A stretch of 32,000 nucleotides of DNA from Aliivibrio fischeri ES114 (GCF_000011805.1 NC_006840.2), one strand, 5' to 3'; counted from the stretch's first letter, positions 1,412 through 30,068 are shown. Numbers and translations are program-made. Notes: generated by a model not told the origin, from the sequence alone.

Positions 1412-1619
1412 AAAAGTTCGCCTGTTAATTCTTTTTTAATACACACCGATAAGATAACGGAAAACGAGAGGGGATGAAACCCAAAACTTTTATTGTTAGC
1501 CACAATAAGTAAATAAAAGTTAACTTGTTGTATCTTTTGGACTTGAGTTGTTGGCAATGTATCGGTATGTTCACATTAATAACAACATAAATGGTATTTA
1601 CGCGTTTACTGGAGCAAGC

Positions 1620-2504
1620 ATGACAGACACAATTTTACCGACACTTAATCGTGTTGCGAGTTTACCTTCATATCAATCAGAGACAGACTCAGACGCTTCA
1701 CTATATGTATCTATTGCTGCATTAATTCAAGAGCATTTGTTTTATCACCCAAAAGCAGTAATCAAAGCACCTGAAATGACGTCAATTGATGCTCAAAGTT
1801 TTGCTGCAATCATTGAAAGTGCGGCTGATGGAAAAACGCATTTTATTGATACACTAGCAAACGTGATTTTATCGAATGTTACTGAAGCGACAAAAGAAAT
1901 CAAAATTGCATTTTCAGATGCGGATAGCGCGGCTTTTGCAGGCCTTCTTGCGGGTCAACTAGAAGAGAAAGAAACCAATCCAATGATGGGAGTTCGAGGT
2001 GTAACTCGATACGCTTCTGACGCTAGCGCCGATCAATTTGCACTAGAGTGTGAAGTGATCAAAAAGGTCATTGCAAACACATCAGCAAGTGTGCAAATCG
2101 TCGTACCATTTGTTCGTAATTTAAGTGATGCTGCAACCATTATTGATCGCTTAGCGATTCAAGGCTTACCGCGTGGTTTAGATAGTTTAAAAGTACACTT
2201 TGTGTGTGATGTGCCAGCTGCAGCATTAATGGCAGATAAATTACTGCAATACTTTGATGGTATGGTGATTAATGTTGATACATTAACGCAGTTTACATTA
2301 GGCGTTGATAAGCAAAATGAAGCATTAGAACATCATTTTGAACCACAAAACGATGCGGTTATACACCTTATTGGACATGCTATTCAATCAGCTAATAAAG
2401 CAAATAAGCCAGTGTTAACCACCATTGATGAACTGGCTCAAAACCTTCGTATTCAAGAGTTGCTAGAGCAACTGAATGTCGTAGATGTTGTAGTTACAGC
2501 GTAA
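1620..2504 (+). CDS. Stand-alone PEP-utilising-enzyme C-terminal (PEP/pyruvate-binding TIM-barrel) domain protein, PpsA-C-terminus-like
   Basis: NPMMGVRGVTRYASD..FALECEVIKKV...VQIVVPFVRNLSDA..GLPRG.DSLKVHFVCDVPAAALMADKLLQYFDGMVINVDTLTQFTLGVDKQNE aligns by eye with E. coli PpsA NPMLGFRGAGRY..FALECEAVKRV..IMIPFVRT..GLKRGENGLKIIMMCEIPSNALLAE.FLEYFDGFSIGSNDMTQL.LGLDRDS. There is no ATP-grasp or phosphohistidine domain. The start was moved from the track start (1548) to ATG 1620, which has a GGAG about 7 nt upstream. Confidence 0.6.
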   Translation: MTDTILPTLNRVASLPSYQSETDSDASLYVSIAALIQEHLFYHPKAVIKAPEMTSIDAQSFAAIIESAADGKTHFIDTLANVILSNVTEATKEIKIAFSDADSAAFAGLLAGQLEEKETNPMMGVRGVTRYASDASADQFALECEVIKKVIANTSASVQIVVPFVRNLSDAATIIDRLAIQGLPRGLDSLKVHFVCDVPAAALMADKLLQYFDGMVINVDTLTQFTLGVDKQNEALEHHFEPQNDAVIHLIGHAIQSANKANKPVLTTIDELAQNLRIQELLEQLNVVDVVVTA

Positions 2505-2586: not shown

Positions 2587-3942
2587 TTATTTTTCGTCAG
2601 ATATCTTTTCTATATCAATAATCTTTGAACGGTTAACAATGATTTTCCAGCGGTGCAACTGCGTGCTGTAATCATCCATTGTCTCTCTAATGACCAAATT
2701 AATTAAATGACGTTTCTCAACAGATTCTTTACTGACTTGACCATCATTTAAGTGATAAATCTTTTGAGACCCTTTCTCCATTAAACGAGCGATAGGGCGC
2801 AAATCAATCAGCATGGTTTCACGAGTTTGTTCATAACCACTCATGAATTTGGTTATGGCCATTTTAGTTTGACTTTTATAGGCTAAAACCACTTCTTCAC
2901 GTTGCACAACACGGTGTTTACGTAATTTTTGAATATCAGAATCAAGCTCAGCAAACGTCATGTAATCAAGCCATTCTAATTTTCTTCCAACATAAGTATT
3001 ACTTGTTGGGTCAAGGTAGCGTTTACGCCACTTAGGTTGTCCTTTACGTATCCAACGCCACATTACATCACGTAAGTCATCCTTAAAGACTTCACGCATA
3101 GCATAGATAAATGAGACCGCAAAAATGAAAGAGGCTGTAATTTCACCCAAGAAACCACGAGCTTGAATCACCATCAATGACACAAAGATCATGACCACAG
3201 CCGTTGCACCGCCTTTTACCATACGCTTAATATGTTTACCTAAAGCAAGGTTCTTTTCTTTAAGCACGATAGGGAATTCGATTAAACGACGCAGTAGACG
3301 CATTTTGTTTGACATACGAGTAATATCTTCCCGAGCTTTACGAGAGTTATAACTCTTATCTAAACGATGCAGATCTTCTTTTTCACAGAAATCGATAAGC
3401 TTCTCTTTCACTTCTTTATATTCTTCATTACGCGGCATGTGCGCAATCAGAGAAAGAAACTTCTGCTCGGTGTACCAAGAAAGGTAATTGTCGATGTTTG
3501 CGTAGTAACGCTTTAGCGTATCGTCATAAGGTACATTACGACGTAACTTTCTAAGGATATCAATTGCGAGTTCAATAGCATCTTCAACTTCCTCGTGCGT
3601 AATGTCGTCACGAGTCGTATCGCTTAGTTGTTGTATCGCTTTTTCTAATGCAAGGGCATATTGATAGGCGTATAAACTCAAACTTAAACGATATTGTTCG
3701 CTCGATAAACGTCCACGTTGTGCAAGGCGAGAGTGCACAAGAGGTAGGTGGTTTTTATCACTAAAATAGGTTCGTTGGCTTTGAATCGAGTTGTAATAAA
3801 ACTCAGATTCAGAAATCATATCCTTGTTTAATCCAAGCTCACCAGGAATAAAAAGAAACATTTCTAGTTCATGTTGTTTGGATTCTTCAACAATATGAGA
3901 AATTTTTAGTGATAAGCCATCCTTCTTACCAACTGTAATCAC
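2587..3942 (-). CDS. Conserved hypothetical protein with a central two-helix membrane hairpin
   Basis: 451-aa ORF with a GTG start and AGGAA about 9 nt upstream. The charged helical N-terminal half is followed by two hydrophobic segments (GGATAVVMIFVSLMVIQARGF / ITASFIFAVSFIYAM) and a basic C-terminal domain. I do not recognise a family signature. Confidence 0.55.
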   Translation of the reverse strand: MITVGKKDGLSLKISHIVEESKQHELEMFLFIPGELGLNKDMISESEFYYNSIQSQRTYFSDKNHLPLVHSRLAQRGRLSSEQYRLSLSLYAYQYALALEKAIQQLSDTTRDDITHEEVEDAIELAIDILRKLRRNVPYDDTLKRYYANIDNYLSWYTEQKFLSLIAHMPRNEEYKEVKEKLIDFCEKEDLHRLDKSYNSRKAREDITRMSNKMRLLRRLIEFPIVLKEKNLALGKHIKRMVKGGATAVVMIFVSLMVIQARGFLGEITASFIFAVSFIYAMREVFKDDLRDVMWRWIRKGQPKWRKRYLDPTSNTYVGRKLEWLDYMTFAELDSDIQKLRKHRVVQREEVVLAYKSQTKMAITKFMSGYEQTRETMLIDLRPIARLMEKGSQKIYHLNDGQVSKESVEKRHLINLVIRETMDDYSTQLHRWKIIVNRSKIIDIEKISDEK

Positions 3943-8841: not shown

Positions 8842-8860
8842 TGGTGTTAAATAAGTAACG

Positions 8861-8890
8861 AAAAGCCGCTAATCAATAGCGGCTTTTTTT
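8861..8890. terminator. Bidirectional rho-independent terminator (copy A)
   Basis: aaaagccgcta-atcaa-tagcggcttttttt: a symmetric hairpin with an A-run and a T-run. Confidence 0.8.
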
Positions 8891-8910
8891 ATGGTTTGCG
8901 GAGGTGTGGG

Positions 8911-9108
8911 TTACCTCTCTAAGGCTTCTTTAATTCGTTGCATTGCTTGAATAAGTACCTCACGAGGACAACCTAGATTTAAGCGAATAAATCCTGAACC
9001 TTCATTGCCAAACGCAATCCCCATGCTTGGAACTATCCCTGCTTCTACTAATTTTCTTTCTAGTTCTTTATCTGTTAGTCCAAGATCTCGGCAATCTACC
9101 CATGCTAA
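8911..9108 (-). pseudogene. Orphan 3'-terminal fragment (65 codons plus stop) of a PatB/MalY-type C-S lyase gene
   Basis: The minus strand reads LAWVDCRDLGLTDKELERKLVEAGIVPSMGIAFGNEGSGFIRLNLGCPREVLIQAMQRIKEALER*. This matches the C-terminus of the intact gene 13912-15084 except for G versus E at one position. An in-frame TAA lies immediately upstream and there is no start codon. Confidence 0.85.
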
Positions 9109-9614
9109 TTACTTGAGCGAGTAATAAACCGATTAATGCTTTAATAATTAACCAATTATAGGACTTATTCTGTGATTATAATCGCTGAAATAAAAGCGAT
9201 TATTTCCAGCCGATACATGTATTAGTTTCGGTATTAAAAAAATAATTGTTTTTCAGTAGGTCTGTTTTTATCTTTTCTATTTTTGAGCATATTAAATTAA
9301 CAGATTGATTTCCTGTTAATTTTTCTTTATCAATTGGAATACCATTAGAATCAATGAAGTTCTTTTTCATCTGAAGAACTAATATAAATTCTAATTGGAG
9401 CAGTGTAATAAAATAATTCTATTATCGGAAGCGATAATATTAACATTAATATTTAATATGCATTCATTCTTTTGATTTCTTAAGGTTATCTTTGACGTGA
9501 GGGGTTTTAATGAAATTATTACAATACTATAAAAGTGTGTTATTTATCACTGAAAATAAGTGTTAAGTGCGAAACTATTATTTAACAAATAATGAAAGTA
9601 GAGATGAATAGTGA

Positions 9615-10529
9615 ATGAAAAATAATGACATAAAACTATCGATTCCTAACATTAGACGTTCAAGATTAATAAATGTAATAAAATCGCATGGTTGCATCAG
9701 AATATTAGAAACTCATAATCCAATCTCAGCACTTATAGCAGAGAAAGCCAGTGCTAATGATATTGATTCTGAAGAGAATGTTGAATATCAAGGTTTTTGG
9801 TCAAGTTCATTAACTGATTCGGTAAGTCAAGGTAAGCCAGATATTGAGTTGCTTGACATTAAGAACAGAATCTCAAATATAAGCGATATATTTGAGGTAA
9901 CTTCCAAACCTCTAATTATAGATGGTGATACTGGAGGGAAAATTGAACATTTATCATTCAACATAAGGTCTCTTGAGCGACTTGGCGTGTCAGCAATTAT
10001 AATTGAAGATAAAACAGGGCTTAAGAAAAACTCATTATTAGGTAATGAGGTTGAACAGAAGCAAGATACAATAGAATCATTCTGCACAAAAATAAAAAAA
10101 GGTAAAGAATCTCAATTAACAGAAGAATTTATGATTATTGCAAGGGTTGAAAGCTTAATTCTAGATGCTGGAATGGAGGATGCATTAGAAAGAGCTTTTG
10201 CTTATAGTGAAAGTGGTGCTGACGGAATAATGATCCACAGTCGACACCAAGATGGAAAGGAAATATTTGATTTTGCGAAACAATATAGATCTAAGTATCC
10301 AGATAAGATATTAGTATGCGTACCTACTAGTTACAATGAAATAAAATTCGATGAACTTAAACAAGCTGGCTTCAATATTGTTATTTATGCAAATCACATG
10401 CTAAGAGCAGCATATAAGGCTATGGAATATACATCTGAGCAAATACTTAAAAATGGAAGAACATCTGAAATAGAATCTCACTTTCTATCAATAAAAAGAA
10501 TGCTAGATCTCGTGCCTGGAACTCGGTAA
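9615..10529 (+). CDS. pepM: Phosphoenolpyruvate phosphomutase (PepM), isocitrate lyase/PEP mutase superfamily
   Basis: Collinear by eye with Mytilus PEP mutase: ETHN (EAHN), WSSSLTDS (WGSGLSVS), DGDTGG (DADTGYG), IIIEDKTGLKKNS (CLEDKLFPKTNS), ARVE, GADGIMIHSR (GADAILMHSK), VPT, YANHMLRA (WANHNLRA). The PepM-diagnostic EDKX5NS motif lies at aa 131-140 (nt 10005-10034). Confidence 0.8.
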   Translation: MKNNDIKLSIPNIRRSRLINVIKSHGCIRILETHNPISALIAEKASANDIDSEENVEYQGFWSSSLTDSVSQGKPDIELLDIKNRISNISDIFEVTSKPLIIDGDTGGKIEHLSFNIRSLERLGVSAIIIEDKTGLKKNSLLGNEVEQKQDTIESFCTKIKKGKESQLTEEFMIIARVESLILDAGMEDALERAFAYSESGADGIMIHSRHQDGKEIFDFAKQYRSKYPDKILVCVPTSYNEIKFDELKQAGFNIVIYANHMLRAAYKAMEYTSEQILKNGRTSEIESHFLSIKRMLDLVPGTR

Positions 10530-11818
10530 TGCTTATGTCTATATTTATATTAACATTAATGATTTTATCTCTAATATATAAGAGAAAATACATACCTTTG
10601 ATTTTTATATTGTTAGGGATTGTTGTTTCCTTGTTTAATGGCGTAGAATTACGAGAAATCGCTTTAAACTTCTCTAATGCATTAAGCTCTGTTTTTTTAT
10701 CTATCGGGTTAAATATTGTTGTTATTATAGCGTTCTCTGAATATGTTAATAAAAATGGGGCAACAAAAGATTTAGTTTTACTCGTTTATAAACCAATAAG
10801 TAAAATAAAAGATAGATACTTAATCCTTGCTATGTTTTATTTAATAGGATTAGCATTAAGCACAGTAATCACATCCGCATCAGCTCTATCTATGATATAT
10901 ATGTCTACTGTATTCCCTATACTGATATCTAAGGGAATAAGTAAAGAAGGTGCAGCGGGAATGATCGCTTCAGTTGGAGTAATAGAATTTGGTCACTTAA
11001 AATCGAGTACTATTTTTATGGCTGAAGAGCAAAATAGATTAATAAATGATTATGTTATTAATGGACAATTATTTTTATTTATTGGTATCGCTATTGTCGG
11101 TGCAATTAGCCATTACTTCTGGCAACGTTACCTCGATAACCGTTTGACTAATGATAACGATGAAAAATCATTAACAGATAATCTAGATTATCAGCATAAA
11201 ATCAGTATATTTACGGCACTGCTACCGTTACTTCCGCTATTTCTTATTTTACCTGAACATCTATTCACTAAACTAAACTTGCCACTTTGGACTATTGGGA
11301 TGATATGTATTTCAATCTCGTTTATTTTAGATCTAAAATCCAATAAATTTAATGTTAAAGAACAATTATCTTTCTTTTTAACTAGCATTAGTAACTCATT
11401 TTTCTTTATCGTATCTGTCATTGTTGGCGGTAAATTTCTAGTCAATTCGTTACCGATAGAAAGTATTATTAATATTTATAGCCATATGTCTTTAGGTTCT
11501 ATAAACCCGATTATTTTATCATCAGTATTATTATTGGCTATCGTGTTATTTTGTACTTTGCTTGGTTCTGGAACGGTCTCTTTTATTACAATAACGTCAA
11601 TAATGTCAAAATTTAAAATCGTATCGATGAATCAGTTCAGTTCAACATTTACATCGATGCAAATGATATCAGGAATAGGAAGAACAATATCCCCTGTATC
11701 TCCAACTACATTATTATGCTCCCAAATTTCTGGAGTTACACTATCTAGCATAATATTAAGAAATATTGTCCCAACCATACTTATTGTAATTTTATCAATC
11801 ATATACAGCAATATTTGA
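10529..11818 (+). CDS. DcuC-family (C4-dicarboxylate anaerobic carrier-like) membrane transporter
   Basis: Polytopic 429-aa ORF. AFSEYVNKNGATKDLV..KP...YLILAMFYLIG.ALSTVITSASAL..IYMSTVFPILISKGISKEGAAGMIAS matches E. coli DcuC GFAAYMTHIGANDMVV..KP...YLLMIAAYFVACLMSLAVSSATGL..LLMATLFPVMVNVGISRGAAAAICAS. Also AISHYFWQRYLDNR (AIAHFFWQRYLDKK) and GRTISPVS (GRTLSPVS). The start overlaps the pepM stop (TAATG). Confidence 0.75.
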   Translation: MLMSIFILTLMILSLIYKRKYIPLIFILLGIVVSLFNGVELREIALNFSNALSSVFLSIGLNIVVIIAFSEYVNKNGATKDLVLLVYKPISKIKDRYLILAMFYLIGLALSTVITSASALSMIYMSTVFPILISKGISKEGAAGMIASVGVIEFGHLKSSTIFMAEEQNRLINDYVINGQLFLFIGIAIVGAISHYFWQRYLDNRLTNDNDEKSLTDNLDYQHKISIFTALLPLLPLFLILPEHLFTKLNLPLWTIGMICISISFILDLKSNKFNVKEQLSFFLTSISNSFFFIVSVIVGGKFLVNSLPIESIINIYSHMSLGSINPIILSSVLLLAIVLFCTLLGSGTVSFITITSIMSKFKIVSMNQFSSTFTSMQMISGIGRTISPVSPTTLLCSQISGVTLSSIILRNIVPTILIVILSIIYSNI

Positions 11819-11826
11819 GGTTAGTT

Positions 11827-12831
11827 ATGAATAAATACGTGATCATTCTGGAAGCTAGTGAAGATAAAAATAAGGATGATACTGGCTTTAGAAAAGATAC
11901 AGCACCGATAATTAAAGCCGTTCAAGATATAGGTATCAATTGTAAAGCTATACATTTCACACTAAGTGAAAAGGATAAAATATTTGATTTTATGAGAAAA
12001 AATTGCGTAGCTTACATATCAAGAGTTAACCCGGGGAAATTAACTACTGGGGAACAAACCTATTTTGATTTCTTAGATAATCTTATTGATGAAGGAATAG
12101 TAGGAATAGAACCCCCAAGTACTTTATTAGCGCTTGGTTCTAAGTCATCGCTCTGTAAGTTAGTAGGTACAGGATTGGTTCCTGATGACATGAGAATATA
12201 TAAAGACAAAAAAGAACTCATTGAAGATTTTGATATTGAAAGTCTGAATTCTGATAGGGTTTTTAAACAAAATAGAGGTTCTAGCGGAAAAGGCATTTTC
12301 AGATTAGGTCTCGTTGATAGCTCAGCATCAAAGATAAGAGTGACCGATGCACAAAATAACCGAACACAGAATATACATATAAATGATTTTATTGATAATT
12401 ATGTTAACTTTGATTCAGGCGTTGTTGTTAATATGCCATTTTTATCTGGAATCAAAGAGGGTGAGTATCGTGTTCTCTTGATTGGCAATACCCCATGCTA
12501 TGTTATTCATAAAAAACCGACAAAAGGTGATTTTAACTTTTCTACGACCTTGCACTCAGGTTCAGAATATAAATATGAAGATGTGTCCAAACATCCTATT
12601 TTGATTGATCTTGTTACTAATAACATTGAGACAATCCTAACAAAGCTAAATGACTCAAGACCTGCGCCATTAATTTGGAGTATTGATTTTATAAGGGATA
12701 TGAAAAATGACAAATTCCTTATATCAGAAATAAACTGTAATTGTCTTGGTTTCACATCATTATTGGATTCGGACATTCCTAAACTAATGGCTGACATGAT
12801 ATATAACCGAATTTATCATGAACATAATTAG
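11827..12831 (+). CDS. ATP-grasp fold ligase, RimK/glutathione-synthetase-like
   Basis: VFKQNRGSSGKGIF (P-loop-like, compare RimK KP..GSGGRGV), EYRVLLIGNTPCYVIHKKP (RimK DIRCLVVGDEVV), DFNFSTTLHSGSEY (RimK DFRSNLHRGG) and SIDFIRDMKNDKFLISEINCNC (Mg/ATP-binding E-x-N). ATG 11827 with GAGG 7 nt upstream is preferred over the track TTG at 11815. Confidence 0.6.
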   Translation: MNKYVIILEASEDKNKDDTGFRKDTAPIIKAVQDIGINCKAIHFTLSEKDKIFDFMRKNCVAYISRVNPGKLTTGEQTYFDFLDNLIDEGIVGIEPPSTLLALGSKSSLCKLVGTGLVPDDMRIYKDKKELIEDFDIESLNSDRVFKQNRGSSGKGIFRLGLVDSSASKIRVTDAQNNRTQNIHINDFIDNYVNFDSGVVVNMPFLSGIKEGEYRVLLIGNTPCYVIHKKPTKGDFNFSTTLHSGSEYKYEDVSKHPILIDLVTNNIETILTKLNDSRPAPLIWSIDFIRDMKNDKFLISEINCNCLGFTSLLDSDIPKLMADMIYNRIYHEHN

Positions 12832-12840
12832 GAGCGAAGA

Positions 12841-13788
12841 ATGAAAGTTTCATACTATGAAGTAAAAGAACGATTAATAAGAAAATTCATAGCTTCAGGA
12901 TTGGCTTGGGATGATGCAAATTGGGTTACTGATGTTTTAATTTCTTCAGAGCAACGCGGTGATAAATCCCACGGGATAAAACATGCAAAGAATATATTTG
13001 ATGTGATTAATAGTGAATGTTATATAGCACAGGCTCCTATTATTCATGATGAAAGGTCAATAACGATACTGGATGGACAGAATTCTATAGGACCAATAGT
13101 AGCGAAACAGGCTATTGATATAGCAATAAAAAAAGCGAAGAAATATGGAACAGCAGCAATATCTTTACGTTCATCAAATCATTTATTTTCATTAAGTCAT
13201 TACGTTAGATATATAGCTAACAATAATATGATTGGTTTTATATGCAGTAGTAGCTCCCCCGCAATGGCTGCTCCAAACTCATTAAATGCCACAATTGGGA
13301 CTAACCCATTTGCATTCGGAGCACCATCATCAAAAGATCCCATAGTCATAGATATGAGTTCGACAAATGTTGCACGAGGAAAAATAAAAGAATATAAGGA
13401 TGCGGAATTAGATATTCCAGTATCTTGGGCATTGGATGAATATGGAAATCCAACCACTTGCGCAATTGAGGCACTTAAAGGCACTTTATCTCCATTGGGA
13501 GGTTATAAAGGTTTTGCTTTAGGCTGTATGATCGATATATTCAGTTCAGTATTGTCTGGTTCTGCTTTTTCGACGCAGATTACAGGTACAAGTCTTCATA
13601 TGGAAGAGGCTGATGTAAATAAGAAAGGAGATTTTTTATTTGTCCTCGATATCAGCAAGTTTATTCAATTAAGTGAGTTTAAAATTCGTATGGATGAATT
13701 TATTCACATTATAGAAAGTAATGGTGGGTATATTCCAGGAACCAATTATATCAATAATCAGTTCGCTGATATAGAAATACTGAATTGA
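12841..13788 (+). CDS. Ldh_2-family NAD(P)H-dependent oxidoreductase (malate / (R)-2-sulfolactate / ureidoglycolate dehydrogenase family)
   Basis: Family landmarks by eye: RGDKSHGI, SNHLFSLSHY, IGTNPFAFGAPS, IDMSSTNVARGKI, SWALDEYGNPT, LSPLGGYKGFALGCMIDIFSSVLSG. A strong AGGAG lies 6 nt upstream of the ATG. Confidence 0.8.
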   Translation: MKVSYYEVKERLIRKFIASGLAWDDANWVTDVLISSEQRGDKSHGIKHAKNIFDVINSECYIAQAPIIHDERSITILDGQNSIGPIVAKQAIDIAIKKAKKYGTAAISLRSSNHLFSLSHYVRYIANNNMIGFICSSSSPAMAAPNSLNATIGTNPFAFGAPSSKDPIVIDMSSTNVARGKIKEYKDAELDIPVSWALDEYGNPTTCAIEALKGTLSPLGGYKGFALGCMIDIFSSVLSGSAFSTQITGTSLHMEEADVNKKGDFLFVLDISKFIQLSEFKIRMDEFIHIIESNGGYIPGTNYINNQFADIEILN

Positions 13789-13861
13789 TGAGTGGGGACT
13801 GAACGATGAGAATTAACTTACTGGGTATAGTAAGAAATAGATCAAATAGTGGCATGATGAT

Positions 13862-13891
13862 AAAAAGCCGCTAATTAATAGCGGCTTTTTT
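13862..13891. terminator. Bidirectional rho-independent terminator (copy B), serving the cassette operon (+) and the C-S lyase gene (-)
   Basis: aaaaagccgcta-attaa-tagcggctttttt. Confidence 0.8.
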
Positions 13892-14109
13892 ATGGTTTGT
13901 GGATGTGTGGATTATCTCTCTAAGGCTTCTTTAATTCGCTGCATCGCTTGAATAAGTACCTCTCGAGGGCAACCTAGATTTAAACGAATAAAGCCTGAAC
14001 CTTCGTTGCCAAACGCAATCCCCATGCTTGGAACTATCCCAGCTTCTACTAATTTACGCTCTAGTTCTTTATCTGTTAGTTCAAGATCTCGGCAATCTAC
14101 CCATGCTAA
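13863..14109. repeat. Direct repeat copy B (terminator plus 3' end of the intact C-S lyase gene)
   Basis: See copy A. This copy is contiguous with the complete ORF 13912-15084. Confidence 0.9.
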
Positions 14110-15084
14110 ATAACCCGCTTCTGGTGGGGTAAAGCGTAGCTCTGGCAGTTCGCTTTCAATAAAAGTTGCTAAGGTAGTAATGTTCTCTTGTAAGTAGGTT
14201 TTAAGTTCGTTTAACCACGGTGCTGAAGTTTGATAAGCAGCAGTGGCAGCACACATCGCCAAGCTATTATAAACATCCATGCCATGCGCATCTAAACGAC
14301 GAACTAAACGTGCTTTTAATTCTTGATTTGGGATCATGAAATTAGAAATACGTACAGAAGACAAGCCGAATGTTTTACTCGCTGCCGTTGCTACAATCAG
14401 TTTTTGTTGTAGATTCTCTGGCAATGATAATGCTGAATGGTAAGTGTTATCTCCCATCGCTAAATCGCCCCAGATCTCATCACTTAGTAGCCACACATCG
14501 TATTGATGACATAGCTCTGCTACAGCGGTTATCTCTTCTTTTGACCATGCTTTACCAACAGGGTTGTGAGGGTTACAGAAGATCATTACTTTAGCGCCTT
14601 GCTGAAAACAAGATTCTAAATGAGCAAGGTCGATAGTGTAGTTTCCTTGCTGCTCAATTAATGGGTTCTCAACCAATACTCGGTCATTAAATTCAACGAT
14701 TTTACGAAACGAGCCATAGCCCGGTGTTTGCATTACCACTTTGTCATTGGTTTCAGTCAGTAGCTGAATTGCCATTGAAAGCCCAGGTAATACGCCGTGT
14801 ACGGTTGTTATCCATTCTTTTTCAATGTGAATATGATGCTGCTCTTGATACCAAGTGATGATCGCTTGGTAGTAGTCATCATTACGTTCTGCATAACCAA
14901 AAATACCATGGTCAATGCGATTATGAAGTGCTTCTAATACGTGTGGTGGCGCTTGAAAATCGTAATCAGACACCCACATAGGTAGTCGGTCTGTGCCATC
15001 TAATCCGAGTTTTTCTTTCATGAAATCCCATTTTAATGAGCCTGTGTTACAACGGTTGTGAATGCAGTCAAAAGAAGTTGTCAT
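13912..15084 (-). CDS. PLP-dependent C-S lyase / cystathionine beta-lyase, PatB/MalY subfamily of class I aminotransferases
   Basis: NRCNTGSLKWD, PMWVSDYDFQAP, GIFGY, CNPHNPVGKAWSKEE and AASKTFGLSSVR (PLP-lysine motif SKTF) are typical of MalY/PatB. Confidence 0.85.
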   Translation of the reverse strand: MTTSFDCIHNRCNTGSLKWDFMKEKLGLDGTDRLPMWVSDYDFQAPPHVLEALHNRIDHGIFGYAERNDDYYQAIITWYQEQHHIHIEKEWITTVHGVLPGLSMAIQLLTETNDKVVMQTPGYGSFRKIVEFNDRVLVENPLIEQQGNYTIDLAHLESCFQQGAKVMIFCNPHNPVGKAWSKEEITAVAELCHQYDVWLLSDEIWGDLAMGDNTYHSALSLPENLQQKLIVATAASKTFGLSSVRISNFMIPNQELKARLVRRLDAHGMDVYNSLAMCAATAAYQTSAPWLNELKTYLQENITTLATFIESELPELRFTPPEAGYLAWVDCRDLELTDKELERKLVEAGIVPSMGIAFGNEGSGFIRLNLGCPREVLIQAMQRIKEALER

Positions 15085-18977: not shown

Positions 18978-20900
18978 TTAAATCGTCGTCTCTATTTTTT
19001 TAAGTACGGCGATCTCATTGGGTACATCAATGTTATAAATATGTCCTTGGTCAGTATAAATAGTAAAGCCCGTTTTATGTGAGAATACTTTATCGACTTT
19101 TCCAGGTAATTTTATATTTGTTAAACTAGCACCAAGCTCTTTAAATCCCCACGAGTTAAGGATGAAGTGGGGAGAGGGTTCTCGCTTTGCTTCTTCTGTT
19201 AATAAATAAGCGCCTTCATTTGATGTGAAAGAGGTAACACTATCTGGAGATGCTTTGATAAATGCATCAGAGAACCCTACATGACTCGGTCTATTTTGGT
19301 CATAATAATAATATTTAATATATTCACCAAATTGTATCTCGGCTGCAATATCCCATATTCCTTGCCATGAAGTAATATCACCATCTTGTCGTATGGTTGA
19401 ATACCCGCTTGTGTTTGTTTTTATATCTACGATATTGGTTAATTCATTTGCATGGTTAACTTTATCTGAGTAAATATTACCTCCACTGAAGATAGTTCCC
19501 CATGTAATAACATCACCATCAAGAGTTAAGGCCGCAAAAGAACCAGACGCACCAACGATTTTTTTAACATTGGTCAGTTCAGTATCTAATTTATGCTCAG
19601 AGTGTTTTTTTTCTGGTGAATAATACGCAGGAATAGACACTTGCTCATAGCCTCGGCCACATATCGGATCATAAGCTGGTTCATAGTCAGGATCATATAT
19701 ATCGCTTGAGTCATAGTCTGGTTCATCATTTTTTACAGGTACGCATTTCTTACTGGCTTTAAAGTAAGTTTGCTCAAAACTATAATAATCATAGATGAAT
19801 TCACCACCTTGGGTTCTGCTTCCCCAAGCACCAACGGTTCCATCTAGTCTAAGAAAAGCAAAAGCACTATCATTTGCAATAATATTCTCTACATTTTGGC
19901 TAACTAATTCGCCTTGTGCTTTTGCTAGTTTTCCCCATCGATATAGATTGCCTTGATCGGTTAAAAGCGCGTAGTTACCTTTATAATCGTATTTTAGCTC
20001 TACAAGGTTCTTTATATCGCCTTGTATATCACTGCATGATATTTTTCCGCTATCTTCAATTAAGCAAGCTTTGTCTTCTTCAGTTTGAATAATAGTACTG
20101 CTTTCACTCGTTAACATATCAATACCATTATCGATAGTTAACTTTTTAGTTGTGCCTTTAGTACTACCAATAATATAAACATTGCCTGTATTGGTTAATA
20201 TTGAAAAATAGTTATTTGCAGAAGTGACTTTTTTAACTCCTTCAGCGTTGATTGCATCAATTAAATCAACATTATCTTTTATTTTTGGCCCCCAAAGGTA
20301 GAAGTTGCCATTATTTTTTATACCAGAGAAGGCATTAGCATGTGCATAGATGGCGATAAACTGATGATTATCTATTGATGGGATTTTTTCAAAGCGTCTT
20401 TCTGCTTGATATGCATATTCTCCATCAAGAATATGATTCCACTCTATAACTTGACCGGTATTAAGCAGAGTCACTTTACTATAACTATTTTCTACTTGTT
20501 GAATAGGAAATGCCTTAGTAAATGTTTTAATGAATGGCTCGGTTACTTGTTCTTTATAATTAAGTTGAGCAGATACAATAATAGGCGAAAGGTGTTCATT
20601 TTCTTTCAACTGATATTCACAATCATTTGAAACAGTAATGTTATCTATCATCCAATTGCAAGATATGGTTTCTGAACCATCAGTAATATTATCTGTGGAA
20701 AAGACGACTTTTAAATGATCTCGGTTAGAGTAATCATTTATTTTATCTGGATAAATAGTTGACTTTAAACTGATGCCATCAAGGTTTACGGTTTTTTCTG
20801 GCGTTGTTACATGATTAACTACGGCTTTATTGTCGGAGGAGCTGTCACCACCACACCCAAATAAAGATAAAGCAAGCAAAGCAGTTAAGATATGTTTCAT
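18978..20900 (-). CDS. Large lipoprotein with RCC1/BLIP-II-like beta-propeller repeats
   Basis: The lipobox LSLFGC follows Met-25 of the track ORF (start 20900). There are 7-9 repeats of the form x-aromatic-x-x-L-x-x-D/N-G-x-V/I-x-x-W-G: NAFSGIKNNGNFYLWGP, NYFSILTNTGNVYIIGS, GNYALLTDQGNLYRWGK, SAFAFLRLDGTVGAWGS, GSFAALTLDGDVITWGT, SGYSTIRQDGDITSWQG, TGFTIYTDQGHIYNI. Confidence 0.6.
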   Translation of the reverse strand: MKHILTALLALSLFGCGGDSSSDNKAVVNHVTTPEKTVNLDGISLKSTIYPDKINDYSNRDHLKVVFSTDNITDGSETISCNWMIDNITVSNDCEYQLKENEHLSPIIVSAQLNYKEQVTEPFIKTFTKAFPIQQVENSYSKVTLLNTGQVIEWNHILDGEYAYQAERRFEKIPSIDNHQFIAIYAHANAFSGIKNNGNFYLWGPKIKDNVDLIDAINAEGVKKVTSANNYFSILTNTGNVYIIGSTKGTTKKLTIDNGIDMLTSESSTIIQTEEDKACLIEDSGKISCSDIQGDIKNLVELKYDYKGNYALLTDQGNLYRWGKLAKAQGELVSQNVENIIANDSAFAFLRLDGTVGAWGSRTQGGEFIYDYYSFEQTYFKASKKCVPVKNDEPDYDSSDIYDPDYEPAYDPICGRGYEQVSIPAYYSPEKKHSEHKLDTELTNVKKIVGASGSFAALTLDGDVITWGTIFSGGNIYSDKVNHANELTNIVDIKTNTSGYSTIRQDGDITSWQGIWDIAAEIQFGEYIKYYYYDQNRPSHVGFSDAFIKASPDSVTSFTSNEGAYLLTEEAKREPSPHFILNSWGFKELGASLTNIKLPGKVDKVFSHKTGFTIYTDQGHIYNIDVPNEIAVLKKIETTI

Positions 20901-21209
20901 AATATATAATTCTATTTTAATTAATATAAATATATGTGCTGTTTTGTAATCAAACAGCGTTATTATCGACATGCTACATTAAGGCTATTATTTATAAGTG
21001 CCTTTTAGTGAATAGTATTTCATAAGTGAAATGAATGCTAGATATAAATCACTTAACTTAATGAATGTAAAAGTAATTAAAAAATGATAATACAAAACAT
21101 TTTTGTATATTTAATTATTAAGAGGTTTAAGGGTAAGGTAGTTACCATTGAATTCATCATGAGGATAAATTCTTTATTAGAGCGAATACCTCTGACGATA
21201 GTTTAAAAA

Positions 21210-21225
21210 TGTGATATCTTTCACA
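21210..21225. promoter_or_regulatory. Consensus CRP (cAMP receptor protein) binding site
   Basis: aaaa-TGTGA-tatctt-TCACA-aaat: both pentamers are perfect with a 6-nt spacer. It sits 26-41 nt upstream of the yciA start. Confidence 0.55.
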
Positions 21226-21250
21226 AAATTATTTTGTATGGAGAATCGTT

Positions 21251-21661
21251 TTGAGAACTGAATTAAACACTAACCAAACACCAAAAGGGCAGCTACTTCT
21301 TCGAACTCTTTCTATGCCAGCAGATACTAATGCTAATGGTGATATTTTTGGTGGTTGGATTATGTCTCAGCTTGATTTAGCTGGTGCAATTTTAGCTCAA
21401 GAAATCTCTGGTGGACGTATTGTAACGGTTTCAGTATCTAGCATTACGTTTAAAAAACCAGTGAAAGTGGGTGATGTGGTTTGTTGCTATGGTGAATGTA
21501 CAAAAGTAGGGCGAACTTCAATGTCGATAGATTTGGAAGTGTGGGTTAAACCAATTAAAGAGGACGAAGTAAGTCACCGTTTCCAAGTGTGTGAAGCAAC
21601 TTTTAATTACGTAGCAATTGACTCAAACGGAAAACCGCGCGCAATTCCAAAGCACTCTTAA
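21251..21661 (+). CDS. yciA: Acyl-CoA thioesterase, YciA type (hotdog fold)
   Basis: LLLRTLSMPADTNANGDIFGGWIMSQLDLAGAILAQEI..GR.VTV....ITF.KPV.VGDVVCCY is nearly identical in pattern to E. coli YciA. TTG start with GGAGA upstream. Confidence 0.85.
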   Translation: MRTELNTNQTPKGQLLLRTLSMPADTNANGDIFGGWIMSQLDLAGAILAQEISGGRIVTVSVSSITFKKPVKVGDVVCCYGECTKVGRTSMSIDLEVWVKPIKEDEVSHRFQVCEATFNYVAIDSNGKPRAIPKHS

Positions 21662-28399: not shown

Positions 28400-29661
28400 T
28401 TAACATCGAATTTTAGGAATGTCTTTCCATTTGGTAGTGTATTGCGGGGTGAGCATTTCTCGTTTCATTCCCCATTGGGTATTTATCCCTTGAGCGCCAA
28501 GAAATAGGGTGTCTGTACCGTATTTATGATTGATTTTATCAAAAATAGTCATTAACTGATTATTGTTTGGGGCTGGGTTTAATAAATCGAATTGCTCATG
28601 TCTTCCATCAAGTAAATCTAATAAACCAACACCCACTTTATAATAGCGAACGTCTGGATGAAACAACTCTTTAGCGATGTGTGTGACCACTGAGGTGATA
28701 TGATTTACATCGGCTGTTGGGTAAGCAAAATGGTGAGTTGCACGTCCATTTACTGGTTTATCATCATGAGGAGAGTTTGAAGCAAAGCAAAGCAAAGTAA
28801 TGTTTTACATAATGAACCTTGTTTTCTGGCTTTCTGTGAAGCAATAGCTGCATGTTTTGCTAACGCTTGTTGTAATGCATCAAGATCGGTAATGCGGTTT
28901 CCCATACTACGAGTTGAAAATATTTGTTTTTTATCTGCACGAGCAACATCCTATGATTTACATGGCGTTCCATTTAACTCTAATACAATACGTTCAACTT
29001 CAACGTTGAAGTTTTTTCTTACTAAGCCGATTGGCATATTGGTCAGTTGGAGTGCTGTATGAATACCCATTTGATGCATACGTTCAGAGAGTTTTCGACC
29101 GATCCCCCATACTTCTTCAACAGATAAAAGGTGGAGTGCATTCAAACGTTCTTGTTCATTATCCAATACACAAACACCATGATAGCCTGCGAACTTTTTG
29201 GCTGCATGGTTTGCTACCTTAGCCAAGGTTAATGTGGTTCCCATACCGACACAAACCGCTAATCGACACTCTTTCCATACGGCTTTACGTAATTGATTCG
29301 CATGTGAACGTAAACAAGGTATTGCGGGAAAGCTACGTTTAAAAGAGAGAAAGGATTCATCAATGGAGTAGATATGTTGCTCTGGCGCAAAGCGTCCAAT
29401 AACTTCCATCATTTTAGACGATAAATCAGAATACAATTCATAATTAGAAGATAGAGCAATAACCCCTTTGTCTTCACATTGTTTTTTTATTTGAAAGTAA
29501 GGTTTAAATTTAGGTATACCTGCTTCTGTCGCTTGGCGATTGGCTGCGACAATCATGCCATCGTTATTGGATAACACAATAATAGGGCGGTTACGCCATT
29601 CAGGACGAAAGACTTGCTCTGCACTGCAATAAAAAGAGTTAGCATCAACCAGAGCAAACAT
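28400..29661 (-). pseudogene. umuC: umuC (DNA polymerase V catalytic subunit) inactivated by an in-frame TAG and a 5-bp tandem duplication
   Basis: The N-terminal ORF (MFALVDANSFYCSAEQVFRP...SNNDG) and the C-terminal ORF (...QWGMKREMLTPQYTTKWKDIPKI) are both UmuC-like but in different frames. Manual translation across 28796-28950 restores collinearity with E. coli UmuC once the TAG (28951-28953) and one ctttg unit are ignored. Confidence 0.85.
28781..28797. repeat. Pentanucleotide tandem repeat (CAAAG)x3 (minus strand CTTTG x3) at the umuC frameshift
   Basis: gaAGCAAAGCAAAGCAAAGtaa. Removing one unit gives ...KTLLCFASNSPHDDKPVNG..., which joins the two reading frames. Confidence 0.85.
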
Positions 29662-30068
29662 TAGGATTGGCTCAGTAAATAACTTGGACGGTGGCAGCGA
29701 ATAGAGCGAGTAACAACGCCCTCAATGGTGAAGGTATCGTAATCATTAATGGGAACGGTTTGGTATCTTTCATTGGCTGAAACTAATAAACGACGTTGTG
29801 TATCCAGTATTTTACAGACGAATTCACCATTAAAATTAGCGACAATGACATCATTGCTTTGTACTGTTACATAGCGATCGACAATGAGTAAATCGCCATC
29901 AAAAATGCCAACCCCTTGCATTGAATCACCACTGGCACGCCCAATAAAGGTTGAACTTGGGTGCTCAATTAATAATTCATCGAGATCAAAAGAAAGCTGA
30001 GAATATTCAGCAGCAGGGCTTTCAAAGCCACTAATACCAGCACTGGCGTGAAGAGGAATTACATTCAT
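29661..30068 (-). CDS. umuD: UmuD (S24 LexA-like self-cleaving accessory subunit of Pol V), apparently intact
   Basis: GFESPAAEY...IGRASGDSMQGVGIFDGDLLIVD...FNGEFVCK aligns with E. coli UmuD GFPSPAADY..VKASGDSM..GISDGDLLIVD..VDGEFTVK (Ser/Lys dyad). The stop overlaps the umuC ATG (TAATG). Confidence 0.85.
   Translation of the reverse strand: MNVIPLHASAGISGFESPAAEYSQLSFDLDELLIEHPSSTFIGRASGDSMQGVGIFDGDLLIVDRYVTVQSNDVIVANFNGEFVCKILDTQRRLLVSANERYQTVPINDYDTFTIEGVVTRSIRCHRPSYLLSQS

Follow-up and report, generated by a model that had tools for sequence, protein, structure and literature searches.

A four-gene PEP mutase cassette of Aliivibrio fischeri and other Vibrionaceae as a candidate phosphonolactate pathway

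The window studied here, a stretch of 32,000 nucleotides of Aliivibrio fischeri DNA, contains a compact block of four genes (positions 9112-13890) predicted to encode a phosphoenolpyruvate (PEP) mutase (PepM; open reading frame 1, ORF1), a DcuC-type carrier (ORF2), an ATP-grasp ligase of the Cj0069/DUF6815 family (ORF3), and an Ldh_2-family oxidoreductase (ORF4). With moderate confidence, we regard this block as an operon that stands on its own, spreads horizontally, and produces a small phosphonate. The most likely function of the cassette is to make and export a small phosphonolactate-based carbon-phosphorus (C-P) compound. Two of its enzyme families, Ldh_2 and the Cj0069-type ATP-grasp proteins, have not previously been tied to phosphonates. 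A preliminary description of the window had offered two routes. The first, leading from PEP via phosphonopyruvate and phosphonolactate to an ATP-grasp product that is exported, emerges as the best reading from searches with profile hidden Markov models, from the joint travel of the four genes, and from the clade to which the Ldh_2 enzyme belongs. The second, its catabolic mirror image, is compatible with the sequence but less favoured.

By its sequence, ORF1 is assigned as a PEP mutase, which would interconvert PEP and phosphonopyruvate. It scores 430.1 bits on the mutase equivalog model TIGR02320 (cutoff 319.55) and 192 bits on PF13714, while other models of the isocitrate lyase (ICL) superfamily stay far below their cutoffs, namely phosphonopyruvate hydrolase with 137 bits (cutoff 374), PrpB with 103 bits, and CPEP mutase with 44 bits. 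The EDKX5NS signature reported in the preliminary description is indeed present as EDKTGLKKNS and aligns, together with the motifs DGDTG, ARVE, and IHS, with the solved PepM 5unc. At the same site, the solved phosphonopyruvate hydrolase 2dua reads EDKTFPKDTS, i.e., TS where ORF1 has NS. The ratio of nonsynonymous to synonymous substitution rates (dN/dS) of pepM amounts to 0-0.10. A reading of ORF1 as a sulfonate or coenzyme M gene was rejected, as its match to ComA (17 bits, cutoff 25) reflects TIM-barrel likeness only.

The equilibrium of the mutase reaction lies more than 500-fold towards PEP (PMC12871164), and the step from PEP to phosphonopyruvate has a Delta-G'0 of approximately +17.9 kJ/mol (PMC12619172). 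Pfam and NCBIfam scans of the window, which covered 28 of its 29 ORFs of at least 100 aa (a 135-aa ORF at 29661-30068 was left out), revealed no gene for the phosphonopyruvate decarboxylase Ppd, an HMGL-like/FrbC-like protein, Aminotran_5/PhnW, PhnX, PhnA, or C-P lyase, in line with what had been claimed for these partners. With no Ppd, FrbC-like, or transaminase partner for PepM in the window, reduction is the only pull on offer there. Because the equilibrium is unfavourable and the cassette holds no canonical partner, the Ldh_2 enzyme is the only available pulling enzyme.

The nearest PepM relatives outside the cassette were found at six loci (L003-L008), one of which (L008) is a 538-bp fragment and uninformative on neighbours. 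In all five informative cases (52-57% identity) PepM adjoins a canonical pulling enzyme, whereas the cassette PepM does not: a thiamine pyrophosphate (TPP)-dependent Ppd in L003-L006 (a proteobacterial metagenome-assembled genome (MAG), SAR86, Ruminococcus, and a Firmicutes MAG), and an HMGL-like FrbC-type synthase in Xenorhabdus (L007), where an aconitase and a luciferase-like oxygenase are also encoded.

NAD(P)H-dependent reduction of a 2-oxo acid is sufficiently exergonic to offset the mutase step, the reduction of oxaloacetate or pyruvate yielding approximately -25 to -30 kJ/mol. ORF4 scores 266.5 bits on the Ldh_2 model PF02615 (gathering score 38.8), and its best NCBIfam match is sulfolactate dehydrogenase with 208.9 bits, below the equivalog cutoff of 500. 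Judged by these scores, it is related to ComC without being a ComC orthologue. A profile of the PepM-linked Ldh_2 clade finds the L-sulfolactate dehydrogenase of M. jannaschii (2x06) as its best solved relative (259 bits). Sulfopyruvate, the substrate of ComC, is the sulfonate isostere of phosphonopyruvate. The position aligned with Arg48 of ComC (SHGIGR), residue 48 of ORF4, is occupied by His in the Vibrionaceae enzymes (SHGIKH) and by Cys in their sister clade (SHGISC).

This sister clade consists of the nearest Ldh_2 relatives outside the Vibrionaceae, which share 42-51% identity with the cassette enzymes and group next to them in a neighbour-joining tree (P0014-P0017). Gene context was read in seven of their loci, three of which are long enough to show PepM. 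All three (L034, L035, and L036/L041) contain PepM, lack Ppd or any TPP enzyme, and carry genes for a phosphoglycerate kinase (PGK)-like kinase and a Semialdhyde_dh protein beside PepM, accompanied in L034 by an iron-dependent alcohol dehydrogenase (Fe-ADH). PGK-like and/or semialdehyde dehydrogenase genes occur in five of the seven loci. Among the short contigs, L042 and L043 show Ldh_2 neighbours of the PGK, Fe-ADH, or semialdehyde dehydrogenase type, and in L045 a CDP-alcohol phosphatidyltransferase gene adjoins Ldh_2. Among Ldh_2 homologues of the following tier, with no more than 37% identity, no PepM was found nearby.

The occurrence of the sister clade in Ppd-less PepM clusters, combined with the kinship to sulfopyruvate and oxaloacetate reductases, suggests that ORF4 is probably a phosphonopyruvate reductase which pulls the mutase reaction. 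That PepM and Ldh_2 together yield phosphonolactate is the part of the pathway which we consider likely. The long sister clusters (L034 168-10577; L035 1-15008; L036 4963-14608) are metagenomic and include groundwater contigs and a MAG protein labelled as Nanoarchaeota. They encode cytidylyltransferase-PepM fusions, B12-radical-SAM enzymes, TauD, and either LicD or CDP-alcohol transferases, and by analogy they look like pathways to phosphonoglycans or phosphonolipids of the 2,3-dihydroxypropylphosphonate (DHPPA) type, with Ldh_2 in place of VlpB, the reductase of valinophos biosynthesis.

ORF3 scores 389.1 bits on NF033816 (Cj0069 family, cutoff 150) and carries a C-terminal DUF6815 domain (PF20668, 92 bits, cutoff 28). 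No sequence homologue was found in the PDB. In its AlphaFold (AF2) model (predicted local distance difference test, pLDDT, 86; predicted template modelling score, pTM, 0.85) the three-domain ATP-grasp fold appears intact and complete with its motifs, and Foldseek retrieved the carboxylate-amine/hydroxyl ligases DcsG, Ddl, RimK, GshB, and LysX/ArgX with E-values of 3e-15 to 1e-11. A glycine-rich loop (K147-QNRGSxGxG) and the residues D287, E301, and N303 are invariant in the family alignment; following the usual pattern of the fold rather than a superposition, we take the three residues to be Mg-ATP ligands. As the superfamily works through acyl-phosphate intermediates, the predicted reaction of ORF3 is the ligation of a carboxylate, activated in this way, with an amine or hydroxyl group.

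An exhaustive HMMER search with ORF3 against 1.84 billion representative proteins returned a single one above 40% identity, the cassette protein of Vibrio mediterranei, and therefore the cassette-type ligase is rare and, as far as sampled, confined to the Vibrionaceae. Mainstream members of the Cj0069 family number at least 935 at E < 1e-10 (36-41% identity) and occur in Bacteroidota, Gammaproteobacteria, and other groups; they are encoded by orphan genes with no PepM nearby, and the neighbourhoods of distant members (38% identity) are unrelated and unconserved.

ORF2 scores 121 bits on PF03606 (cutoff 23) and 161.5 bits on NF037994 (cutoff 100), but remains with 168.6 bits below the cutoff of 187 on TIGR00771, and is thus, on profile scores, a divergent member of the DcuC family. 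It is retained in all copies of the cassette with 52-70% amino acid identity and a dN/dS of 0.14-0.23. Carriers of the DcuC family are able to work in either direction; we presume that ORF2 exports the product, while under a catabolic reading it would be the importer.

The four genes travel together through three genera of Vibrionaceae. They occur in constant order in A. fischeri (L001 and L009-L018), Photobacterium profundum, V. mediterranei, and a Photobacterium-like metagenome contig (L040), and the flanks of the cassette are unrelated among A. fischeri, P. profundum, V. mediterranei, and the metagenome contig. Within A. fischeri, the source of the window, the proteins of strain emors.2.1 share 98-99% identity with those encoded here. 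Identities of ORF1 to ORF4 decrease to 79, 69, 77, and 75% in P. profundum ATCC BAA-1252 (L002) and to 77, 52, 60, and 59% in V. mediterranei (L019). All four genes are intact, and dN/dS ranges from 0 to 0.30 within and between genera. Since this holds at both shallow and deep divergence, the cassette is maintained as a functional unit. Two Logan assemblies contain truncated copies, a DcuC of 179 aa (L013 1520-2059) and an Ldh_2 of 275 aa (L012 3832-4659), which could be real inactivations in some strains or assembly errors. No close copy was found among PLSDB plasmids, the matches there being Cj0069 proteins at 20-24% identity.

In the literature, we found no paper on the Vibrionaceae cassette and no relevant item on a PEP mutase of A. 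fischeri, nothing on Ldh_2 (PF02615) as a phosphonopyruvate reductase, and nothing relevant on the function of Cj0069/DUF6815 proteins, mentions of Cj0069 being incidental. The earlier claim of an undescribed system thus stands for this set of genes only, as the phosphonolactate branch is already known from valinophos and a similar design has been predicted for Paenibacillus larvae.

Taken together, four steps can be proposed. PepM, assigned by its sequence features, would convert PEP into phosphonopyruvate. The Ldh_2 enzyme would then reduce phosphonopyruvate with NAD(P)H to 3-phosphonolactate, thereby giving the thermodynamic pull that is provided elsewhere by Ppd. Judging from its fold and its position in the operon, the ATP-grasp enzyme might use ATP to join phosphonolactate to a partner, either as an amide via the carboxylate or as a VanA-like ester on the 2-hydroxyl. 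Finally, the DcuC-type carrier may export the product, an analogue of C4-dicarboxylates. ATP-grasp ligases complete several phosphonate pathways, e.g., VlpF in valinophos and PnaB/C in phosphonoalamide biosynthesis (PMC12723261, PMC11867202). The ATP-grasp protein is the only ATP-using enzyme of the cassette, whereas the sister clusters encode the PGK-like kinase, which by analogy is proposed to activate the carboxylate of phosphonolactate. The complete chain of biosynthesis, ligation, and export is the account that we favour, although with less assurance than the formation of phosphonolactate itself.

Several points weigh against this account. Pathway, product, and enzyme activities are all predicted from genes alone. 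The absence of partners was read from a window of 32 kb, and a Ppd or a transaminase may be encoded elsewhere in the genome. For the co-location of PepM with Ldh_2 in the sister clade, the basis is three long, independent loci and four fragments, and the His or Cys at the position of Arg48 of ComC may indicate a change of substrate. Since the mainstream Cj0069 genes occur without PepM, the family itself is not phosphonate-specific, and the substrate of ORF3 is not predictable from its sequence. Neither the direction of transport nor that of the redox step can be read from the genes; PepM is reversible, with the conversion of phosphonopyruvate into PEP running downhill.

The first alternative concerns the end of the pathway. 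Phosphonolactate itself might be exported, with the ATP-grasp protein acting elsewhere, e.g., in self-protection or, like the mainstream Cj0069 family, in the modification of a cellular carboxylate. The valinophos producer has yielded phosphonolactate from its spent medium (PMC8942020). As an analogue of malate, the compound suits a DcuC carrier, and the mainstream Cj0069 proteins function without any PepM. However, ORF3 belongs to a distinct subclade that is found only with the cassette, and its gene lies between those of carrier and reductase, separated by 8 and 9 nt. We therefore consider this variant unlikely.

Somewhat less probable still is a catabolic cassette, in which DcuC would import phosphonolactate or a conjugate thereof, Ldh_2 would oxidise it to phosphonopyruvate, and PepM would convert the latter into PEP, with recovery of phosphorus and carbon. 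Ldh_2 enzymes are reversible dehydrogenases and DcuC carriers can be bidirectional, and by Pfam and NCBIfam scans the cassette contains neither a regulator nor genes for resistance or tailoring. The last step would be strongly favoured (PMC12871164, PMC12619172). On the other hand, such a route has no role for an ATP-consuming ligase, which purifying selection has preserved in all copies of the cassette, and the sister Ldh_2 clade resides in plainly biosynthetic clusters, recognizable by their cytidylyltransferase-PepM fusions, LicD, CDP-alcohol transferases, and polysaccharide genes. Moreover, no match to a PhoB box was found upstream of the cassette with up to three mismatches allowed, and we know of no PepM with a demonstrated catabolic role. 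If this reading were true, the cassette would represent the first route of C-P "cleavage" via PepM, in which neither a hydrolase nor a lyase is needed to feed both phosphorus and carbon back into central metabolism.

A non-working system, i.e., a decaying remnant of horizontal acquisition or an ORF1 with a non-mutase activity of the ICL superfamily, would agree with the low GC content, the lack of a regulator, the patchy distribution among strains, and the truncated copies in L012 and L013. It is nevertheless very improbable, given four intact ORFs with low dN/dS at short and long divergence and an ORF1 that carries the motif and scores above the PepM equivalog cutoff. Finally, the known phosphonopyruvate transaminases belong to the Pfam family PF00155. 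Li and Horsman class pepM neighbourhoods with a PF00155 gene as PalB-like (PMC8942020), and such a gene, patB, lies next to the cassette, but transamination of phosphonopyruvate to phosphonoalanine in the manner of PalB or PnaA is scarcely credible and was rejected, since the neighbour is a PatB-family carbon-sulfur (C-S) lyase, which is convergent to the operon beyond its terminator, has a host-like GC content, belongs to the native flank (it is present at a cassette-free site), and was not co-transferred, being missing beside the cassette in Photobacterium, V. mediterranei, and L040.

The coordinates of the cassette and its flanks are summarized in Table 1. The four genes are packed in the manner of an operon, as had been noted before: the stop codon of ORF1 and the ATG of ORF2 share TAATG at 10527-10531 (1-nt overlap), and gaps of 8 nt (ORF2-ORF3) and 9 nt (ORF3-ORF4) follow when the start of ORF3 is taken at ATG 11827, as called in other assemblies.

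Table 1. Features of the pepM cassette and its flanks (positions in the window).
Feature	Position	Strand	Remarks
Left terminator hairpin	8860-8888		lies in left repeat
Left direct repeat	8861-9111	.	copy of bidirectional terminator hairpin and truncated 3' fragment of patB
Leader, presumed promoter region	9112-9614	+	503 bp, AT-rich, ORF-poor
ORF1, pepM	9615-10529	+	304 aa
ORF2, DcuC-family carrier	10529-11818	+	429 aa
ORF3, Cj0069/DUF6815 ATP-grasp ligase	11815/11827-12831	+	334 aa from ATG 11827
ORF4, Ldh_2-family NAD(P)H oxidoreductase	12841-13788	+	315 aa
Intrinsic terminator	13862-13890	+	closes the operon, shared with convergent patB; 12-pair stem followed by a T-run
Right direct repeat	13863-14112	.	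terminator and 3' end of intact patB
patB, C-S lyase family (PF00155)	13912-15084	-	TIGR04350 409 bits (cutoff 340); GC 41%

The ORF-poor stretch ahead of ORF1, estimated previously at about 500 bp, contains no ORF above 56 aa. It is retained in the A. fischeri copies L001 and L009 although their left junctions differ, and could not be aligned with the Photobacterium or V. mediterranei copies. Matches of the leader to Rfam are all below threshold and driven by the terminator, and sigma-70-like sites in it are not enriched (20 found versus 28 expected). Its largest ORF, of 56 aa, runs antisense (9200-9370, minus strand; MKKNFIDSNGIPIDKEKLTGNQ...), and several assemblies annotate it as a gene. 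Its conservation merely reflects the near-identity of the A. fischeri copies and lends no support to coding.

The base composition sets the cassette apart from its surroundings, but less than had been claimed. Spot counts given in the preliminary description are exact (21.7% GC at 10561-10620 and 50.0% at 14101-14160); the conclusion that the block is far more AT-rich than its flanks is overstated, as the cassette (9112-13862) has 31.6% GC compared to 37.6% in the remaining window. Still, it is the stretch of lowest GC content at this size (4.75 kb), windows of the same size outside having a mean of 0.372 (standard deviation 0.014, minimum 0.344). GC content at third codon positions (GC3) is 0.22-0.25 in the cassette genes and 0.25-0.34 in the 14 other window genes measured.

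In the window strain the cassette sits between a lysM-lipoprotein gene and patB and is enclosed by two direct repeats of 250 bp with 93% identity (repeat families of 227 and 29 nt, 93-97%). The ends assigned to the block in the preliminary description (8861 and 14109) coincide with this repeat, which it did not mention. The left repeat contains the last 65 codons of patB (8911-9108, minus strand; translation ...AWVDCRDLGLTDKELERKL...KEALER*). Flanking repeats in direct orientation, carrying a second copy of the target gene's 3' end, are a trait of integrative islands; however, no integrase, recombinase, or transposase ORF was found in 8861-14112. patB occurs at the empty site and is missing beside the cassette in L002, L019, and L040; it belongs to the native flank, served as the target of insertion, and stands outside the pathway.

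The empty site is represented by a Logan contig (L026, ERR868086, seen in two samples) which joins lysM directly to patB. Outside the repeat, it is 100% identical to the window on either side, and it contains a single hybrid repeat (1917-2167) that is of the left type until approximately column 187 of the repeat alignment and of the right type thereafter. This is exactly as expected for the product or substrate of one homologous crossover within a segment of 35 identical nucleotides. Furthermore, the Logan contigs of cassette-bearing samples break at the repeat node, where contigs of island length (approximately 5.0 kb) begin and end. A look-up with the PatB protein yielded short contigs only. 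Hybrid repeat and contig breaks together indicate that the empty site is probably real, although an artefact of k-mer assembly is possible. The repeats imply that the cassette can be gained or lost by RecA-type recombination without an integrase.

A. fischeri strains differ at this locus, which points to the lysM-patB gap as a hotspot of accessory cassettes. L001 carries the cassette without the left repeat. In L009 (3678-7368) and L010 (3679-7368) (GCA_041470685.1 and GCA_001730145.1), a three-gene module lies between lysM and the pepM cassette, encoding an RpiR-type HTH_6/SIS regulator, a second, more canonical DcuC carrier, and an M20 peptidase; approximately 35 bp of the downstream junction of this module are retained in L001. 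A link of the module to phosphonates, e.g., by hydrolysis of N-acyl amino acids, is conceivable but unsupported. As neither the window nor L001, Photobacterium, or V. mediterranei has this module, it was rejected as a part of the system and treated as a separate insertion.

Some further observations were made elsewhere in the window. A second patch of low GC content (18978-21500, 0.31-0.34) encodes a protein of 664 aa with a weak match to RCC1-like repeats only (GC3 0.245), and may be another horizontally acquired gene. A umuC-like gene at 28400-29661 (minus strand) appears to be divided between one ORF with the IMS domain (28951-29661, 236 aa) and another with DUF4113 (28400-28795, 131 aa), with the 135-aa ORF left out of the scans directly upstream; this region may represent a disrupted translesion-polymerase operon. 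A 451-aa ORF (2587-3942, minus strand) has no Pfam match at all, and a stand-alone protein of 318 aa with the PEP-binding domain of PEP-utilising enzymes (1548-2504, plus strand) is encoded next to a DAHP synthase gene.

If the proposed pathway is true, Ldh_2 represents a second, unrelated solution beside the VlpB-type dehydrogenases for a reductive pull on PEP mutase. Such clusters would then be overlooked or wrongly assigned by current classifiers of pepM neighbourhoods, which rely on PF02826, PF00155, HMGL-like, and TPP domains, and the native patB of A. fischeri would give a false phosphonoalanine call. Likewise, the cassette would offer a first functional foothold for the large orphan family of Cj0069/DUF6815 ATP-grasp proteins and, with four genes that are easily transplanted, a way to a new metabolite derived from phosphonolactate. 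The polymorphism among strains of a squid symbiont, an apparent natural empty site, and the repeats make a handy system for the role of a secreted phosphonate in a host-associated community. Seen more soberly, the cassette is one more orphan pepM cluster among many, which adds no new principle but is a solid lead for genome mining.

Among known systems, the valinophos/DHPPA pathway of Streptomyces durhamensis (vlpABCDE and vlpF) shares with the cassette a PepM that is pulled by reduction of phosphonopyruvate and the lack of Ppd. Its reductase VlpB, a 2-Hacid_dh_C protein (PF02826), is unrelated to the cassette Ldh_2 (PF02615); no VlpB-type PF02826 protein is encoded in the cassette or the window, and Ldh_2 is the only oxidoreductase beside PepM. 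Genes like vlpC, vlpD, and vlpE, which we take to encode a PGK-like kinase, a semialdehyde-type dehydrogenase, and an alcohol dehydrogenase, are lacking from the cassette and the window and present in the sister loci. Further differences are the Cj0069/DUF6815 type of the cassette ATP-grasp protein, the built-in DcuC carrier, and the Vibrionaceae host in place of an actinomycete. In valinophos biosynthesis, the carboxylate is activated at the expense of ATP and the last step falls to an ATP-grasp ligase, which can be likened to the cassette (PMC8942020, PMC12723261, PMC12871164).

The same logic as in the cassette, reduction of phosphonopyruvate followed by ATP-grasp ligation, underlies the cluster GCF 842 of Paenibacillus larvae (Ppm, malate dehydrogenase, fumarase, and ATP-grasp), predicted by Li and Horsman in 2022 (PMC8942020). 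It differs in a dehydrogenase of another family (malate dehydrogenase type), in the fumarase, which would lead to phosphonoacrylate, and in its phylum, and is likewise a prediction. The phosphonoalamide cluster pna (PnaD as PepM, PnaA, and PnaB/PnaC) is also minimal and Ppd-less, with four enzymes and an ATP-grasp finish (PMC11867202), but the pull is provided by transamination to phosphonoalanine, two ligases of other ATP-grasp families are used, and a carrier is lacking. For ORF4 alone, the enzyme to compare is ComC (2x06), the (R)-sulfolactate dehydrogenase of coenzyme M biosynthesis; its context is comABDE, while that of ORF4 is PepM. The metagenomic clusters of PepM, PGK, Ldh_2, and semialdehyde dehydrogenase share with the cassette the Ldh_2 clade, PepM (51-53% identity), and the lack of Ppd, and by analogy they resemble the vlpABCDE layout towards 2,3-dihydroxypropylphosphonate (PMC8942020), with Ldh_2 in the position of VlpB. 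Unlike the cassette, they would continue to a DHPPA-type head group, and they have neither a Cj0069 ligase nor a DcuC carrier; they look like systems for the decoration of glycans or lipids, whereas the cassette has the appearance of a four-gene operon for a secreted metabolite.

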